Of a DNA stretch of 32,000 nucleotides, positions 4,891 through 25,700 are shown piece by piece. Made by a program: the position numbers and the translations under genes. This DNA is from Dickeya dadantii NCPPB 898 (GTDB lineage Bacteria; Pseudomonadota; Gammaproteobacteria; Enterobacterales; Enterobacteriaceae). Position 1 is the first letter of the stretch. Each line of letters starts with the position of its first letter. The notes below the pieces were generated by a model that was not told the origin of the DNA, did not search any database, and was given only the letters and a program-made list of their open reading frames with translations. The DNA is taken from positions 3,864,955 through 3,896,954 of the forward strand of contig NZ_CM001976.1 in NCBI RefSeq assembly GCF_000406145.1. The letters run 5' to 3'.

Positions 4891-5901
4891 ATGGCCACCA
4901 TTAAGGACGTCGCCAGGCTGGCAGGCGTGTCGGTCGCAACCGTGTCACGCGTCATCAACGATTCGCCGAAAGCCAGTGCACAGGCACGCAACGCGGTACT
5001 ACAGGCCATGCAGCAGTTGCAATACCACCCGAACGCCAACGCCCGCGCGCTGGCCCAGCAGTCCACCGAAACGCTGGGACTGGTGGTATCCGACGTGTCC
5101 GACCCGTTTTTCGGCACCATGGTCAAAGCGGTGGAGCAGGAAGCCTATCGCACCGGCAACTTTCTGTTGATTGGCAATGGTTACCATGTGGCGCACAAGG
5201 AGCGTCAGGCGATCGAACAGCTGATTCGCCACCGCTGCGCGGCGCTGGTGGTCCACGCCAAGATGCTGCCGGATGAAGAGCTCACCCAACTGATGGAACA
5301 GATTCCGGGCATGGTGCTGATCAACCGCATCCTGCCGGGTTATGAAACACGCTGTGTGGCGCTGGATAACCGCTACGGCGCCTGGCTGGCGACCCGACAC
5401 CTGATCCTGCAAGGGCACCGCCAGATCGGCATCCTGTGCTCCAACCACGCCATCTCCGACGCCGATGACCGTCTGGCCGGTTACCGCAACGCGCTGGCCG
5501 AACACGCGATTCCGCTGGATGAGCAGTTGATCGCCTACGGCGAACCGGACGAAAGCGGCGGCGAGGCCGCGATGATCACGCTGCTGGAACGCGGCCGCCC
5601 GCTGACCGCGCTGACCTGCTACAACGACCCGATGGCCGCCGGCGCGCTGGCGGTGCTGAGCGATAACGGTATCGAGGTGCCGCGGGATATGTCGCTGATC
5701 GGCTTCGATGACGTGCTGCTGTCGCGCTACCTGCGCCCGCGTCTGACCACCATCCGCTACCCGATTACCGCCATGGCGACGCAGGCGGCGCAGATCGCGC
5801 TGGCGCTGGCCAACGACACGCCGTTGCCCAACGCCATCAACCTGTTCCACCCGACGCTCATTCGCCGGCATTCGGTCGCCGGTTTGAATAATGGGCGTTA
5901 G
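4891..5901 (+). CDS. galR: LacI-family galactose repressor GalR
   Basis: 336 aa. MATIKDVARLAGVSVATVSRVIN...YHPNANARALAQQ is near-identical to remembered E. coli GalR over the HTH, with similarity along the whole length. It neighbours lysA-lysR as in E. coli, but an accessory block intervenes here. Confidence 0.9.
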   Translation: MATIKDVARLAGVSVATVSRVINDSPKASAQARNAVLQAMQQLQYHPNANARALAQQSTETLGLVVSDVSDPFFGTMVKAVEQEAYRTGNFLLIGNGYHVAHKERQAIEQLIRHRCAALVVHAKMLPDEELTQLMEQIPGMVLINRILPGYETRCVALDNRYGAWLATRHLILQGHRQIGILCSNHAISDADDRLAGYRNALAEHAIPLDEQLIAYGEPDESGGEAAMITLLERGRPLTALTCYNDPMAAGALAVLSDNGIEVPRDMSLIGFDDVLLSRYLRPRLTTIRYPITAMATQAAQIALALANDTPLPNAINLFHPTLIRRHSVAGLNNGR

Positions 5902-6155
5902 TGATGCATCAAGAGCGGTTAACAAACAGCAGTGTTATCTTGCAGGGGGATGCTGCTGACAACGATCCATCCTGTTATTAGCTGTTTCGATGAGCGTGAC
6001 CACTATGCTGACGATTACCGAAGGTCGGAAACGCTACTTTACGCCGGAACTGAATAAAGGAAATAGATCAACAAACAGAAGTTCAAATTGTACAAACAGA
6101 ACCAGCCCAAGGTTTATGATGAATATGTTTTTAATGTATGAGACCTAAATTTTCG

Positions 6156-6941
6156 TCACAGCTCTCTATTCATTTTAAATGATCGATACTTTTGAGCAAC
6201 GGCTATATCTGTGTATTCACCATCAACGCAGTTTTCTATACTCTGACCATCTAAACCTCGAATACCATTTATAGATTCACCCCAAAGCTTTCTATCCCGA
6301 ATGCCATCTATAAACTGACATAAGTAGTTATCCAAAAGCCCTTTTGATGGGGATTCAATTTCAGCGCTTAAGGCTCTTAAATAATCCACTTTATTGGTTA
6401 TAGACCAATCAATCGAGAAGCCTGCTCGATGACAAAGCTCATTGTGAATAATCAGCATAGTACGTCCATTCCCATCAAGAAATGGATGCCCATAAGCAAA
6501 AAAACCCATAACTTCACCGGGGCGCTGACGCATCGATTCTGCATTCTGTCCAAGACGCAAGCCCTGCTCAATAGCTAATCGCGCATCATGAGGATGGCAG
6601 AACATCGTATCAGCTTTAGATACCGCACAATTAGGAGCAGTCATCGCACGGTCTTGACCAGCCCACGGATAGAATGCTTCGAATAATATCCGATGAACTT
6701 CCAAGAAATCTTCATAACAGAGGACGTCTCTTCCCGCTAAGTAAGCTAAAGCTTCATCTAAACCAGCACGAAACATTGTGTGTTCAAGTTGACGAACAAT
6801 TGCCGGGTCTTTTTCACCATAATGGTTACGTAAATAACCGGCTTGCTCAAAATCATTAAACGGATCAAACACTTTGTTTTTGTTCTCGTAAGTAATTAAC
6901 TGACAATATCGCGACTTCTTGCTTAGTGATTTTTCCCGCAC
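6156..6941 (-). CDS. Fic-domain protein (Fido superfamily) with a variant active-site motif
   Basis: Codons at 6488..6453 read directly as HPFLDGNGRTML. This matches the Fic signature HxFx(D/E)GNGRxxR except for the last Arg. The upstream region ...FLEVHRILFEAFYPWAGQDR... resembles the VbhT/Bep/E. coli Fic class. The start is either the ATG at 6941 (77-nt overlap with the upstream gene) or the GTG at 6872 (8-nt overlap). Confidence 0.8.
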   Translation of the reverse strand: MREKSLSKKSRYCQLITYENKNKVFDPFNDFEQAGYLRNHYGEKDPAIVRQLEHTMFRAGLDEALAYLAGRDVLCYEDFLEVHRILFEAFYPWAGQDRAMTAPNCAVSKADTMFCHPHDARLAIEQGLRLGQNAESMRQRPGEVMGFFAYGHPFLDGNGRTMLIIHNELCHRAGFSIDWSITNKVDYLRALSAEIESPSKGLLDNYLCQFIDGIRDRKLWGESINGIRGLDGQSIENCVDGEYTDIAVAQKYRSFKMNREL

Positions 6942-7533
6942 GTTTTAAGGCGACAAGTAGATCTTCGACGGCATCATGTACCACTTCATCACCAGCTAAA
7001 CGAGTCACAGCATCAGCCCATTGATCCATCGCATTGTAGCAATAAGACACATTGTAATAACGAGCAAGCTCTGATACGTAACGAGCAACACCTTTAGTCG
7101 GAGGTGTCTTTGCCAATTTGAATGCTGTATTTTTAATACAAGACCTACGGCTATAACTACGAAAACAAATAGTATTACCATTGATGACAAGCTTGCGCTT
7201 AACTCTTGGCGCATCAACTTCAACAATGATCTCACCTTGAGAGGTATTTTCCTTAGCAAAGGATAAGTCTTTTCGGTGAAGCGGGAAGCCTAACTTGTCG
7301 GCTACTTCACGAATGATAACATCGAGACTACCCTGTGCTTTTACATCATTCCCCTCCCTTTTGGCTTTAGCGTAAATCCCTAGAGAAAGGCGAAGAAGTA
7401 CACCATTCTCCACTAACACATTCAATACATGTGTAACTTGGGTCTTGCTTCCCAATTGAGCGAGATCAGAACGAGATAATACAACTCCACGACGATGTTG
7501 AATCGACTGGCGTATACGAGTTTCGAGTTTCAT
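6865..7533 (-). CDS. Hypothetical protein with an AbiEi-like N-terminal winged-helix domain and an unassigned C-terminal domain; candidate antitoxin/regulator of the Fic gene
   Basis: 222 aa from the ATG at 7533, preceded by GGGGAGG. The ORF-track start at 7599 has no SD. The N-terminus VVLSRSDLAQLGSKTQVTHVLNVLVENGVLLRLSLGIYAKAK fits the remembered AbiEi/DUF6088 pattern (...G.L.R...G.Y). The stop overlaps the Fic ORF. Confidence 0.55.
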   Translation of the reverse strand: MKLETRIRQSIQHRRGVVLSRSDLAQLGSKTQVTHVLNVLVENGVLLRLSLGIYAKAKREGNDVKAQGSLDVIIREVADKLGFPLHRKDLSFAKENTSQGEIIVEVDAPRVKRKLVINGNTICFRSYSRRSCIKNTAFKLAKTPPTKGVARYVSELARYYNVSYCYNAMDQWADAVTRLAGDEVVHDAVEDLLVALKRAGKITKQEVAILSVNYLREQKQSV

Positions 7534-7821
7534 AAAAGCCTCCCCAATAAAGCTCCTTATCATCCTAACAAGAAAATCTATTTCTTTCAATTTTCTCATT
7601 TATTTACAATCAATTAGATTGCATTCAAGCACTTACTAACCGACATCTATTGTTAAATATAATTGCAATCATCGACCATATATAAGTGGCTGTTTTGGTT
7701 GTTACCCTAGATAGAATATTGCTTCCAAAGCCAAACACCATAGCGACTTGTTTTTGTGCTTCGATCGAATGAGTAAGATTCAATTAAGCAAGATATCGTA
7801 AAATTCAGAGGCCCTATCTAA

Positions 7822-7992
7822 AAAATTGAAATGCAAGGAGATGTTATCGAGATGGATGGCATAACATTCACGTCCTGAAAGCGGCCACTGGAGCGGAAAA
7901 AATATCCCGATGAACTTGAGGATCATGAGTTGGGTCGCTCTCGCGGCGGCTTTGGCACCAACATCCATCTGGCAACAGATAGTGCAGGATAA
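7822..7992 (+). mobile_element. Fragment of an IS5-family (IS427/IS1031-like) DDE transposase gene; a pseudogene with an internal stop, truncated at both ends
   Basis: The frame reads KIEMQGDVIEMDGITFTS*KRPLERKKYPDELEDHELGRSRGGFGTNIHLATDSAG*. GRSRGGxxTxIH is a hallmark of this transposase group. The fragment stops at the junction with the galR remnant. Confidence 0.6.
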
Positions 7993-8116
7993 CCGCTACG
8001 GTGCCTGACTGGCTACCGGGACGCGATGGCGACGCAGATGGCGTTGGCCAACGACACGCCGCTGCCCAACGCTAATCCGCCGGCATTCGGTCGCCAGTTT
8101 GAATAATGGGCGCTAA
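7984..8116 (+). pseudogene. galR: Decayed duplicate of the galR 3' end
   Basis: 7984-8017 matches 5361-5394 with about 4 mismatches in 34. 8025-8116 matches 5771-5901 with two internal deletions. The matching text is ...gatggcgacgcag...gccaacgacacgcc(g/t)(c/t)tgcccaacgc...cgccggcattcggtcgcc(a/g)gtttgaataatgggcg, ending in TAA versus TAG. Confidence 0.8.
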
Positions 8117-8177
8117 ATGAGTAAGGCGTTAAGACGCAGCAGGTACTAGTGAGCCCCGTTAGCTAAAGGTGATGGTT

Positions 8178-8681
8178 TTACGGTGTGATTGACCTTAACG
8201 CGCGGTGATACAACCGCACCGTTTTATCGGGGTACTCAGGCGCATCGCCAATGTACCGCCAGCCGTGGCGCTCGTAGTAACCACTGAAACCGGCGTAGAG
8301 ATAGAGATCGTGGAAGCCGCGCTCACGGCTGAACTCAATCACAAAACGCTGTAGCTCGGCGCCCAGACCGCGATCGCGGTAGTGCTCGTCCACATAAAGC
8401 GCCGCCAGCCAGGGGGTCAAATCCTGTCGGCTGATCAGATCGCAGCGCCATAGCCCGACGGTGCCGACCAGTTGCTCGCCTGCCAGCGCCACAAACGTCA
8501 GCGGCAACGCTTGTTTGTCCATGCTGTGATGCACCACGCTGGCAAAAAAGTCCCGGCTCAGCCCTTCGCCAAACGCCTGCCACAGCCAGTCGACGACCTG
8601 CGCCTCAAAGTGCGGGTAATCCGCCAGATAACCAATCGAGACCTGAGATCCTATCGTTGCCTTAGATTCCATCGTCGTCAT
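8178..8681 (-). CDS. GNAT-family N-acetyltransferase
   Basis: 167 aa. The acetyl-CoA binding-type motif is ...LYVDEHYRDRGLGAELQRFV... (Q/RxxGxG/A). The start lies 2 nt after the stop of the upstream GntR gene (TGAGCATG), so the two are likely co-transcribed. Confidence 0.8.
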   Translation of the reverse strand: MTTMESKATIGSQVSIGYLADYPHFEAQVVDWLWQAFGEGLSRDFFASVVHHSMDKQALPLTFVALAGEQLVGTVGLWRCDLISRQDLTPWLAALYVDEHYRDRGLGAELQRFVIEFSRERGFHDLYLYAGFSGYYERHGWRYIGDAPEYPDKTVRLYHRALRSITP

Positions 8682-22471: not shown

Positions 22472-22930
22472 CTACAGCAGGCGGGAATCGAAATAGAACG
22501 GCACCACCTGCAGCGTGGATAACACCTGTTGCGCCTCCGGGTGTTCAGGGTTGAACAGCGCGTTCCATTCGCCGGTCAGCGTGCTCGGCACCTTCAGCAC
22601 CAGACTGACGCGCGACGCCAGCCACTCATCACCGATCTGCCGGGTGGCGTCCGGCGGCGGATCCTGTTGCCAGTCGGCGGGCAACGCGTCCCGGCTTAAC
22701 TCCATCACCAGCGTATCGGGCACCTCTACCGATAGTAGCGAAAACGCCGGCAGCATAGCCACTTCCCGCAGGTGTACCAGCGTCTCCAGCAGGCACAGCG
22801 CAATGGTGCCGCCCAGATAGACACAGGGAACGCCCTTGCTGTTCCAGCGCCCGCCGTACAGTTTTGCGCCCGCGCCATCAAACGCCTGTGACACAAATGT
22901 CTGCTTCACCAGTCGGTAAAACGTCGCCAT
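22472..22930 (-). CDS. RES-domain toxin (NAD+-targeting; ParT/MbcT/Res family)
   Basis: 152 aa. The R-E-S triad context is GGRWN, LCLLETLVH and KVPSTL. An ATGA start/stop overlap links it to the upstream antitoxin gene. Confidence 0.9.
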   Translation of the reverse strand: MATFYRLVKQTFVSQAFDGAGAKLYGGRWNSKGVPCVYLGGTIALCLLETLVHLREVAMLPAFSLLSVEVPDTLVMELSRDALPADWQQDPPPDATRQIGDEWLASRVSLVLKVPSTLTGEWNALFNPEHPEAQQVLSTLQVVPFYFDSRLL

Positions 22931-23382
22931 CAGCTGATGACGCCGTGGCCGATGCGGCCAATCAGATCCAGCACCGCTTCGGTGCCGGCCGGGGTTTTCA
23001 GCATCGCGGCCGGCGGTTGCCCGCCCAGCGCCTTCGCCGGCTGATTCAGCCAGTCGACCGCTTTGACGTAATCGCGATCGAACAACCGCGCGGCGGCGTC
23101 CAGCACCCGAACGCTGGCATAAATTCTGGCGCCCTGCTCCACCGACCAGGTCTTCTCCGGATGCTTGAGCCGGCGGTGGTAGGTACTGCGATCGACGCCG
23201 ACCAGCCGCAACAAATAGCCTTCATCCAGCTGCGCCTTATTGGCGGCCTCGCGGATGATGCTGACCGGCAAACCTTCGCTGATCTGTTCATGTGCCCGCA
23301 CCAGTGAAGAAGACAGAGACAGAGCGGCTAAAATCCCCTCGTGCTCCTGTACACGGACGGTCGGCGTAAACAGCGATGTCAT
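22930..23382 (-). CDS. Xre-like antitoxin with a C-terminal DUF2384 (ParS/MbcA-type) toxin-binding domain
   Basis: 150 aa. The C-terminus is ...AVDWLNQPAKALGGQPPAAMLKTPAGTEAVLDLIGRIGHGVIS, typical of DUF2384. An AGGAGGGG SD precedes the start. It is translationally coupled to the RES gene. Confidence 0.85.
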   Translation of the reverse strand: MTSLFTPTVRVQEHEGILAALSLSSSLVRAHEQISEGLPVSIIREAANKAQLDEGYLLRLVGVDRSTYHRRLKHPEKTWSVEQGARIYASVRVLDAAARLFDRDYVKAVDWLNQPAKALGGQPPAAMLKTPAGTEAVLDLIGRIGHGVIS

Positions 23383-23679
23383 GATCCCCTCCTGATTCGT
23401 TGCGGTTGCAACATCAGTTTATTGCAGTCGCACAAAAAACGCAAAAATACCTATTTCGGTGATGGCATGTGGGCAAAACATAGCGAAAGTCCCTGAAAAT
23501 ACTTGATGCCTCGAATAACATATCCTGACCGCACATTGCCCATTCCACGACAAAGCGAAGAATTACGCTGATACAACGCATAGTTGTTATATGACTTAAA
23601 GTTTTTATTACGCCATTGAGTTTCATATGGCGCATCTGAGATGTGCGTTTCTGTAGCTCTCGCGATTATAAGATACATA

Positions 23680-23709
23680 TTGACGCATTGATTTAATTGA
23701 GATTAGTAT
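23680..23709 (+). promoter_or_regulatory. Candidate sigma70 promoter of the repeat-protein gene
   Basis: TTGACG (23680-85), an 18-nt spacer, then TAGTAT (23704-09). AGGGA lies 4 nt before the ATG at 23742. It is embedded in a very AT-rich 360-bp intergenic region. Confidence 0.3.
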
Positions 23710-23741
23710 ACTTTCGCCTTTTTTATTGAGTCATAGGGACT

Positions 23742-25670
23742 ATGCGCACTTTCCTCTTATTTTTGGGCGTTCTACTGTTTTCATCATCGGTTTTATCGGC
23801 AGAACCATCCCATGTAAATTTCACAGAACAAAATCAGCAAATTACATCATTAATTGGGCAACTCATTCAGTTACACCGAGAGCAAGCAAAACTGGAAGAG
23901 CAGGTCAAATCCAACACCAATGATATTCAGGCCCTCGCCGATAAAAATAAAGATGTATTAAAAAATGAGATCGCGACCCTTTCCAGAGAAATTTCATTCA
24001 CTGAAAAAACAGTGGAAATACGGATTGCCAATATCGAAAAAAGCAGCGATTACATTAATAAATTATATGGTGTAGGAAGCATTATTATTACATTGATGAT
24101 CTTTGGATTTGGTTTCATTGGTTATCAAAGAGCCAAGACTGATGCAAAATCAGCCGCTGAAACCGCGATGAAAGAATGGATTAAGAAGAATGAAAACGCG
24201 GTATTATCCACCATTGATGAGCACACAAGAGCACAAGAAGCGTTATTACGAGATCATACCGATAGCTTGCTTCAGGAGCTAAGAGATACGGTGCAAAATG
24301 CACAAAAAGATGGCGAAAAGCTGGCAGGTTTCCTGAGAAAAGTTCAGGAAAATAAAGGCGCCACGATTGAAGAAAAACAGTTTATTCCCCAGGAAGCAGA
24401 TAAAGCCGCAGGCTCAGTTCATCAGGAAGACAAAGGGCCTCATGCCCCTTCGGTAAAAAAAGCCAGAGGCTTATTCAATCAAGGCGTCAGTCTTGGGCAG
24501 CAGGGTAAATCGGACCAGGCAATACAAATTTATAACCAGTTAATCACTGAATTCCAGGACAGCGATGATCCGATATTACAGGAGCTGGTTGCCAAAGCCA
24601 TGGGCAACAAAGGCTTCAGGCTTGGGAAAAAAGGCGAACTGAGCGACGCAATCCAGACCTACGATCGGTTGATAACCCGTTTCAAAAACAGTGATAGCCC
24701 TGTCATTCTGCAATGGATTGCCACCGCGATGCTGAATAAAGCCATCAATATTGGGCAACAAGGCCAATCGGATGAAGAAATCCAGGCCTACGACCAGTTG
24801 ATCGATAAATTCAAAGACAGCACAACGCCGGCAATACAGGAATTGGTAGCCAAAGCCATGGTCAACAAAGGCGTCAGACTTGGGCAACAGGATAAATCGG
24901 ACGAAGCCATCCACAACTATGACCAACTGATAGACATGTTTGAAGGCAGTGATAGCCCCGCCGTACTGAAACAGGTCGCTATGGCTATGCTCAATAAAGG
25001 CGTCAGACTGGGGCAACAAGGCCATGCTGACAGCGCTATCCAGAACTATGATCTGCTGATTGCCCGGTTCAAAGACCGCGATGAACTTGAACTCCAGGAG
25101 CAGGTTGCCAAAGCCATGCTGAATAAAGGCGTCAAATTTGGGCAACAAAACGCACAGGATGAGGCCATTCAAATTTATGACCAGTTGATTGCCCAGTTCA
25201 ATGACCACAGTGAACTCGTATTCCAGGAACTGGTGATCAAGGCTATGCTGAATAAAGGCGTTAGGCTTGGGAAGCAGGGAAAACAAGAAGAAGAGATCAA
25301 AATCTACGACCAGCTAATAGCCCGGCACAAAGACAGCGACGAGCCAGTGCTGCTAAATCAGGTCGCCATGGCCATGGTCAATAAAGGCATCAGCCTGCGG
25401 CAGCATGGTCAGCCAGAAGAGGCCATCAAGATCTATGACCAACTGATCGCGACGTTCCAGGACAGTGAGGTGCCGACAATACAGGAACGTGTTGTCAGCG
25501 CTATGTTTTATAAAGGATTCGCGCTTGGAAAGCAGGGCCAGACGGACCAGGCGGTGCAAACCTACGATCGACTGATAACCACATTCCAGAGCAGTGATGA
25601 TCCCGCAATACAAGCCATTGTCGCCAAAGCGAGGAAAGAGCATAAAACGCTGACAACATCTAAAGAATAG
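23742..25670 (+). CDS. Membrane-anchored TPR-like repeat protein: signal peptide, about 85-aa coiled coil, TM helix, linker, 9 x 43-aa helical repeats
   Basis: 642 aa. The signal peptide is MRTFLLFLGVLLFSSSVLSA-EP. Residues about 28-108 are heptad-rich. The TM helix is VGSIIITLMIFGFGFIGY (about 111-128). Residues 241-627 are nine units of consensus AkAmlNKGvrLGqqGksdEAIqiYDqLIarFkDSddPvlqeqV. Confidence 0.8.
   Translation: MRTFLLFLGVLLFSSSVLSAEPSHVNFTEQNQQITSLIGQLIQLHREQAKLEEQVKSNTNDIQALADKNKDVLKNEIATLSREISFTEKTVEIRIANIEKSSDYINKLYGVGSIIITLMIFGFGFIGYQRAKTDAKSAAETAMKEWIKKNENAVLSTIDEHTRAQEALLRDHTDSLLQELRDTVQNAQKDGEKLAGFLRKVQENKGATIEEKQFIPQEADKAAGSVHQEDKGPHAPSVKKARGLFNQGVSLGQQGKSDQAIQIYNQLITEFQDSDDPILQELVAKAMGNKGFRLGKKGELSDAIQTYDRLITRFKNSDSPVILQWIATAMLNKAINIGQQGQSDEEIQAYDQLIDKFKDSTTPAIQELVAKAMVNKGVRLGQQDKSDEAIHNYDQLIDMFEGSDSPAVLKQVAMAMLNKGVRLGQQGHADSAIQNYDLLIARFKDRDELELQEQVAKAMLNKGVKFGQQNAQDEAIQIYDQLIAQFNDHSELVFQELVIKAMLNKGVRLGKQGKQEEEIKIYDQLIARHKDSDEPVLLNQVAMAMVNKGISLRQHGQPEEAIKIYDQLIATFQDSEVPTIQERVVSAMFYKGFALGKQGQTDQAVQTYDRLITTFQSSDDPAIQAIVAKARKEHKTLTTSKE
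24462..25622 (+). repeat. Intragenic tandem repeat, 9 x 129 bp (43 codons), diverged copies
   Basis: Repeat boundaries were counted from the protein: aa 241 + 9x43 = aa 627, followed by a 15-aa tail. Recurring DNA strings include aataaaggcgtcagact(t/g)gggcaaca. Copies look diverged by eye at the DNA level, so the duplication does not look recent. Confidence 0.85.
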
Positions 25671-25700
25671 CGCCCCCAATCGAGAGCCGATAGCGACAGC

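Follow-up and report, generated by a model that had tools for sequence, protein, structure and literature searches.

By their regulation, Fic enzymes are at present divided into three classes, each of which relies on a single inhibitory glutamate. In class I pairs such as VbhT/VbhA and FicT/FicA, this residue is carried by an (S/T)xxxE(G/N) helix in a small antitoxin encoded upstream of the Fic gene. AMP-transferases carry the canonical signature HxFx(D/E)GNGRxxR, whose second arginine, R(2), binds the gamma-phosphate of ATP (Goepfert et al. 2013, PMC3667792). It is for R(2) that the inhibitory glutamate competes in each of the three classes, and motifs that depart from the consensus are taken as a sign of other activities, for example HxFxDANGRxxV in the phosphocholine transferase AnkX (PMC3667792). 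Here we describe a two-gene locus in a 32,000-nucleotide (nt) stretch of the Dickeya dadantii NCPPB 898 genome (contig NZ_CM001976.1, positions 3,864,955 to 3,896,954 of the forward strand, hereafter the window), where a Fic protein that lacks R(2) is encoded directly downstream of a partner protein with an AbiEi-like head and a conserved C-terminal domain. An earlier note on this DNA, made from its letters, had singled out the pair as a candidate toxin-antitoxin (TA) or abortive-infection system. Judging from the sequence comparisons below, it is probably, though by no means securely, a type II-like TA module with non-canonical Fic inhibition.

The gene pair

The features of the locus are as follows:

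7533..6865, minus strand: partner gene, 222 amino acids (aa), putative antitoxin and autorepressor (intact open reading frame (ORF), 165 homologues)
6872..6156, minus strand: Fic-domain gene, 238 aa, GTG start, VbhT/FicT-like, putative toxin (PF02661)
6865..6872, minus strand: 8-nt stop/start overlap GTGTTTGA, read from the sequence
7562..7590, minus strand: sigma-70-like promoter TTGAAA-17-TAGGAT with TG (promoter scan and locus alignment)
7336..7533, minus strand: AbiEi-type winged helix-turn-helix, partner residues 1-66 (PDLC02229, weak Pfam, Foldseek)
6868..7101, minus strand: four-helix C-terminal domain (C-domain), partner residues 145-222 (conserved, no Pfam or NCBIfam match)
6453..6488, minus strand: Fic active-site motif HPFLDGNGRTML, residues 129-140, in which R(2) of HxFx(D/E)GNGRxxR is replaced by Leu

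Both genes are intact and lie head-to-tail on the minus strand, the partner upstream and Fic downstream. Translational coupling had been proposed for them; the 8-nt overlap is consistent with it, and the overlapping arrangement is repeated in related loci that have both genes. The ATG of the partner is preceded by a ribosome-binding site, GGGGAGG, and all of the 165 homologues found share the same MKLE start; an alternative start giving 244 aa was dismissed, as it lies upstream of the conserved promoter. For the Fic protein the GTG at 6872 (MFDPF...) is most likely the start, since (M/V)FDPF begins all aligned homologues, and a 261-aa version was dropped for the same reason. The catalytic histidine is H129 in the 238-aa protein; the number used in the earlier note, H152, is that of the 261-aa maximal ORF. 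In an alignment with the Shigella, Shewanella, Vibrio and Erwinia loci the promoter is conserved, and it is kept together with ~100 nt upstream even in the Erwinia locus, where the proteins are 67–72% identical; a putative operator probably lies in this conserved block directly upstream of the promoter.

The Fic protein was expected to be VbhT/FicT-like and to match PF02661, and it does (4.5e-12). Its closest solved structures are those of VbhT (3zcb and 3shg, E 1e-12), and VbhT is also the nearest named NCBIfam model, far under its cut-off. A search for homologues returned 1,773 matches at 60–89% identity. What had been overlooked is that the second arginine is absent from HPFLDGNGRTML: the motif retains R(1), the anion nest, the Asn and the glycines, as well as the catalytic His and the Mg-binding Asp, and has a hydrophobic residue at R(2). 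This is a property of the family, as HPFLDGNGRTML is invariant in 25 of 25 aligned homologues, in which the catalytic residues other than R(2) are likewise all invariant. It also accounts for 40 of the 47 in-family motif matches across the fetched loci, the other seven ending in L or M.

Architecture of the partner protein

The N-terminus of the partner had been assigned to the AbiEi/DUF6088 pattern. This stands for the first ~124 residues, which match the PADLOC AbiEi model PDLC02229 at 2e-21, but the Pfam matches to DUF6088 (6e-5) and, weakly, to AbiEi_3_N and AbiEi_4 are all under the cut-offs and cover the winged helix only, as does a weak sub-threshold match to NCBIfam TAA_AbiEi; the DUF6088 profile is covered only at positions 2–56 of 172. 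An AlphaFold2 (AF2) model of the partner (mean predicted local distance difference test score, pLDDT, 82) is laid out as a winged helix (residues 1–66) followed by a helix, a three-stranded sheet (101–126) and a C-terminal four-helix domain. The top PDB match of the model in Foldseek is the AbiEi of S. agalactiae (6y8q, E 9.5e-4), the others being generic winged helices; a search of PDB sequences with the partner profile gave chance matches only, and no AbiEi chain.

The helices of the C-domain span residues 149–159, 168–179, 188–198 and 204–220 in the model. Over 35 gene pairs the winged helix and the C-domain are each conserved at ~60%, the middle at ~30%, and the aligned C-domain has the consensus DxWAxxVTRLAGDxVxxDxxEDLLVALKRAG...YLRE. 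The earlier note could not assign this part of the protein, and none of the Pfam or NCBIfam models matches its ~78 aa. Public annotation calls the partner 'hypothetical' or 'AbiEi family antitoxin domain-containing' and the Fic protein 'Fic/DOC family protein'.

The C-domain and the R(2)-less Fic family travel together

A scan with the partner profile, one genome per species, gave 54 loci, and a Fic gene lies directly downstream in 44 of them, so that the co-occurrence of homologues, on which the proposed pairing depended, is borne out. The exceptions are of several kinds. In a Leucothrix locus (L037) an XRE-type helix-turn-helix stands in place of the AbiEi head, with the C-domain and the Fic gene both kept, and in another (L050) the partner is a protein of 140 aa that corresponds to the C-terminal part alone. 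Elsewhere the C-domain is kept whilst Fic is internally deleted (L054) or replaced (L044), or the partner is present and Fic is lost (L024 and L041). Most exceptions are cases of Fic decay with the partner retained, the pattern expected if a toxin can be lost and an antitoxin cannot.

The same association is found from the Fic side. Each of three homologues examined (from Pseudomonas, from Proteus, and a form fused to KfrB) has an overlapping gene upstream, and a hidden Markov model of the C-domain matches, with E-values from 1e-29 to 1e-35, the products of these three upstream genes and of the gene upstream of Fic at locus L061. Of the four, two have the full length (225 and 235 aa) and the others measure just 85–88 aa. 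A stand-alone C-domain lies directly upstream of a member of the R(2)-less Fic family at L061, at L067 and at an Agrobacterium plasmid locus (L058); in the last, on pAtG3_79b, an 81-aa stand-alone C-domain protein is followed by a Fic-BID protein with the motif HPFLDGNGRTIM. The KfrB-fused forms are a subgroup of the Fic family (~318 aa; L067/L068, P0449, P0391 and others) with a C-terminal KfrB domain (PF18790). They sit in a plasmid- or phage-like array of small genes, where an 88-aa stand-alone C-domain protein precedes the Fic gene.

In one metagenomic protein, P0387, the C-domain is fused in front of a Fic domain of the same family. An AF2 model of the fusion has both domains confidently folded (predicted template modelling score 0.74), and the Fic portion resembles VbhT, NmFic and EcFicT in fold; in the alignment behind this model the last 'YLRE' turn of the C-domain is misaligned. 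The metagenomic contig that carries P0387 (L059, 50 kb) is crowded with ankyrin-repeat genes, which suggests the genome of an intracellular symbiont or pathogen.

Divergence across the 35 pairs correlates with that of Fic most closely in the C-domain (r = 0.92, against 0.85 for the winged helix and 0.80 for the middle). The minimal conserved unit is thus the C-domain plus the R(2)-less Fic protein, with the AbiEi head as an optional DNA-binding attachment; the head is interchangeable because the C-domain also occurs alone, fused to an XRE domain or fused to Fic, with the same Fic family. The proposal of an AbiEi antitoxin with a swapped toxin therefore holds in part: the first ~124 residues are AbiEi-like, but the constant element beside Fic is the C-terminal ~78 aa.

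Mode of control

Neither protein was thought to carry (S/T)xxxE(G/N). In the 35 pairs and three alignments no column has the motif in more than one sequence of either protein, so none is conserved, but the statement was not literally right, as the window partner contains SFAKEN at residues 91–96. This match falls within an unconserved, disordered linker (pLDDT <50), and 0 of 34 homologues match the motif at that position. Comparison of the C-domain profile with VbhA gave an hhalign probability of 0.3% (with a VbhA sequence checked against chains 3zc7_B and 3shg_B), and its comparison with PDB sequences gave chance matches only. With neither R(2) nor an inhibitory helix in the family, the competition between glutamate and gamma-phosphate that controls Fic classes I–III is ruled out here. 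The joint absence of the glutamate motif and its target arginine across the whole clade is the strongest argument we have for a different way of inhibition here.

From these observations we infer a scheme in which the partner would both repress and neutralise. Through its winged helix it would attach to the conserved promoter region and keep the operon repressed, which would make the module autoregulated, and the C-terminal four-helix domain would physically bind the Fic enzyme and neutralise its toxicity. The part most likely to block the active site or target dock is the TRLAGD(E/D) loop, which joins helices 2 and 3 and hardly varies. Loss or titration of the partner would let Fic modify an essential protein, and growth would arrest. 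By analogy with VbhT and FicT the reaction could be nucleotidyl transfer to GyrB/ParE, with the missing R(2) leaving the donor and the chemistry open. More tentatively, the C-domain might be a fourth Fic control, one that works without an inhibitory glutamate and is matched to the R(2)-less clade, perhaps with another donor or chemistry, and perhaps also a promiscuous neutraliser or adaptor that serves HipA-like kinases, MNT-type nucleotidyltransferases and TerD; we hold this further step to be possible but doubtful.

The C-domain family extends well beyond the locus. A search of the full library with partner residues 141–222 returned 477 clusters at 50% identity, amongst them many stand-alone forms (75–130 aa), AbiEi-headed proteins of ~220 aa, tandem duplications (P0266, P0334) and, apart from the Fic fusion P0387, fusions of the C-domain, N-terminally, to TerD (P0357) and to an MNT-type nucleotidyltransferase (P0361). 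Amongst stand-alone members, whose neighbour spectrum comes from a few single look-ups and plasmid matches, one C-domain gene is convergent with a nucleotidyltransferase gene (L057) and another lies beside RusA (L062). These non-Fic neighbours, together with the TerD and MNT fusions, mean that the C-domain is not Fic-specific; beyond Fic it could be a promiscuous neutraliser or adaptor, form orphan antitoxins, or have a different function.

Several observations weigh against a type II-like module of this kind. Many stand-alone C-domains occur away from the R(2)-less Fic family, for example at L046, L051, L056, L057, L060, L062 and L063, at one of which (L051, 5890–7676) the C-domain member is upstream of a HipA-like kinase, and the domain could have a role other than toxin binding. 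Some members weakly match the Pfam winged helices of DeoR and MCM, a hint that the C-domain could be a DNA-binding fold. The sole C-domain–Fic fusion, P0387, comes from one gene call in metagenomic data and could have arisen artificially by read-through. The loss of R(2) could leave the enzyme with low or no catalytic activity. Finally, PDC-S04, a PADLOC defence candidate related to the Fic protein, was without a defence phenotype in one test.

A mobile unit in a low-G+C islet

The module lies in an islet with the following borders:

5769..5900, plus strand: 3' end of a LacI-family gene, left copy of a direct repeat (repeat search; Pfam LacI)
8022..8115, plus strand: degenerate second copy of the LacI-gene 3' end at the right islet border (~90% identity, deletion)
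~7879..8010, plus strand: insertion sequence (IS) fragment, IS5-family transposase, at the islet edge (translation GRSRGGFGTNIHLATDSAG; tblastn)

The earlier note had described a mobile, low-G+C island with an IS remnant, and all three parts of that description hold up. The islet (5902–8021, ~2.1 kb) has 41.5% G+C, against 57–59% in the flanks, and is bracketed by a ~130-nt direct repeat of ~90% identity, the right copy of which carries a deletion. The repeat resembles a scar left where an insertion entered the LacI gene at its 3' end and restored the reading frame; no integrase is left at the islet. The IS5 fragment (...GRSRGGFGTNIHLATDSAG...) is broken by a stop codon and abuts the degenerate LacI 3' copy. 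It has tblastn matches in 423 plasmid records, one among the matches listed being annotated as an IS5 family transposase, and a Pfam scan of the fragment gave no match.

The module is horizontally mobile. Its nucleotide similarity of ~85% to the Shigella, Shewanella and Vibrio loci runs from ~300 nt 5' of the partner start to the Fic stop codon; as it ends there, the mobile unit comprises the promoter and the two genes, ~1.7 kb. At 86% nucleotide identity the module is also found in 13 of 5,426 complete E. coli genomes, in all of them on the chromosome, and the closest match to the partner protein is in Dickeya chrysanthemi (97%). Upstream of the promoter, ~230 nt (7600–7830) are shared at ~85% with the copies in Shigella, Shewanella and Vibrio. 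The idea that this interval encodes a conserved RNA or small ORF was considered and dropped, the conservation being limited to the ~86%-identical copies. It holds no convincing ORF and no Pfam or Rfam match, Rfam being empty across 5800–8200, and its conservation may be that of a hitch-hiking part of the mobile unit.

Alternative readings

The pair could instead act mainly in abortive infection or phage defence: the partner or the complex would sense infection and free Fic, and the cell would arrest, a course of events compatible with TA mechanics. The match of the Fic protein to the unverified candidate PDC-S04 (1e-22), the match of the partner head to PADLOC AbiEi models and the setting, an islet that is low in G+C and holds the remains of an IS, would point this way. 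So would two other loci: in E. coli M8 the module is part of a variable region rich in IS elements, with an AAA ATPase and an 'ABC-three component system' next to it, and in Proteus two RlaP nucleotidyltransferase genes lie beside the pair. The negative test of PDC-S04, made in a native host, speaks against this reading, however, as do the ordinary metabolic and regulatory neighbours of the islet in the window (by Pfam a LacI-family regulator, a GNAT acetyltransferase and a GntR/FCD regulator) and the presence of the pair on only one small metagenomic phage contig. We regard a mainly defensive role as possible, though rather unlikely.

Less probable still is a non-toxic regulatory pair, in which Fic would reversibly modify a cellular protein or the partner itself, and the partner would be a transcription factor, with the C-domain as substrate, activator or DNA-dependent switch and not as inhibitor. 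There are precedents for Fic enzymes that are joined to DNA-binding domains and whose AMPylation and deAMPylation are regulated, for instance Coxiella Fic (PMC10628234) and the Fic-1–AntF deAMPylase complex of P. fluorescens (PDB 8wt0); the missing R(2) speaks against a standard, highly active AMP-transferase, and the C-domain also occurs with non-Fic partners. Nevertheless, a gene that strictly overlaps from upstream, a unit that moves horizontally and a Fic gene that is lost time and again while the partner stays are typical TA traits, and a catalytic site that is invariant except at R(2) also speaks against such a pair.

A type IV arrangement, in which the antitoxin would counter the toxin indirectly, at the target or via expression, and without binding it, has in its favour the AbiEi-like N-terminal part of the partner and the description of AbiE as a type IV system (PMC3985639), but is very unlikely, since the dispensable head (stand-alone and XRE-fused C-domains pair with the same Fic family), the natural fusion P0387 and the tight correlation of C-domain with Fic divergence fit direct contact better.

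Other features of the window

A second, conventional TA pair lies at 22472–23382 (minus strand), where the antitoxin (22930–23382, minus) has an Xre-like helix-turn-helix and an Xre/MbcA/ParS C-terminal domain, and the RES-domain toxin (22472–22930, minus; 152 aa, PF08808 at 3e-31) overlaps it by one base. Adjoining this pair, at 23742–25670 (plus strand), is the gene for a TPR-rich protein of 642 aa that gives a weak RNPP_C-like signal. The surrounding 23500–25700 is a second low-G+C stretch (39–50%) and may be another acquired island.

Significance and comparison with known systems

A widespread clade without R(2) and without the glutamate, strictly linked to one partner domain, would extend the accepted rule of Fic control, and may reveal a different donor substrate or target. 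The locus also puts a name and a testable role to a family of domains, at least 477 clusters strong at 50% identity, for which Pfam and NCBIfam have no matching model, and it illustrates the modular construction of an antitoxin, in which AbiEi and XRE heads are exchanged on a single toxin-specific tail. Its practical value is modest for now.

As far as a literature search found (AbiEi, DUF6088, Fic, PDC-S04, NetFlax and inhibitory helix; not exhaustive), the pairing has not been described, as the earlier note had supposed; the NetFlax paper makes no mention of AbiEi or of the pairing with this Fic protein. The Fic protein is unlike mobile mystery protein B (TIGR02613), for which it scores 18.6 bits against a cut-off of 124.4. 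It matches PDLC04838 of PADLOC PDC-S04 over residues 10–175 (1.2e-22), but PDC-S04 is defined as a single gene, whereas here an upstream partner is an obligatory part of the unit.

With Phd/Doc the module shares the Fic/Doc fold, a hydrophobic residue at the R(2) position and an antitoxin encoded upstream, and Doc-type motifs were met in the fetched loci (HVFNDANKRTAL and HVFNDGNKRTAF). The motif in the window, however, keeps GNGR and not the NKR of Doc kinases, whose motif is HxFx(D/N)(A/G)NKR, the partner is unrelated to Phd, and NCBIfam DOC_P1 gives a score of 12.4 against a cut-off of 38.65.

The resemblance to AbiEi/AbiEii (S. agalactiae, 6y8q) lies in the AbiEi-like N-terminal winged helix and in the bicistronic order with the antitoxin-like gene first. 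The module differs from AbiE in that the toxin is a Fic protein (PF02661) and not an AbiEii/DUF1814 nucleotidyltransferase, and in that the C-domain of the partner is unrelated by sequence to the C-terminus of AbiEi/DUF6088. Panacea (PanA/DUF4065) and NetFlax offer a different parallel, that of one small domain found beside or fused to Fic, a HipA-like kinase, an MNT-type nucleotidyltransferase and TerD; the C-domain is nevertheless of a different, undescribed fold family, and its promiscuity is seen at a handful of loci.

The closest comparison remains that with the class I pairs VbhT/VbhA and FicT/FicA. The Dickeya motif HPFLDGNGRTML departs from them in ending in Leu where the canonical signature has R(2), and the partner in having neither a conserved (S/T)xxxE(G/N) helix nor similarity to VbhA. 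Unlike the ~60-aa VbhA and FicA, it is a 222-aa protein with a DNA-binding head, or elsewhere a four-helix protein of ~85 aa. In other respects the locus is built as class I is: the Fic domain is closest to VbhT both by sequence (E 1e-12) and by fold, a gene in the antitoxin position lies directly upstream and overlaps it (by 8 nt here, with the same gene order in 44 of 54 loci and at three further Fic homologues), and the Agrobacterium plasmid relative has, like VbhT, a Fic-BID architecture.

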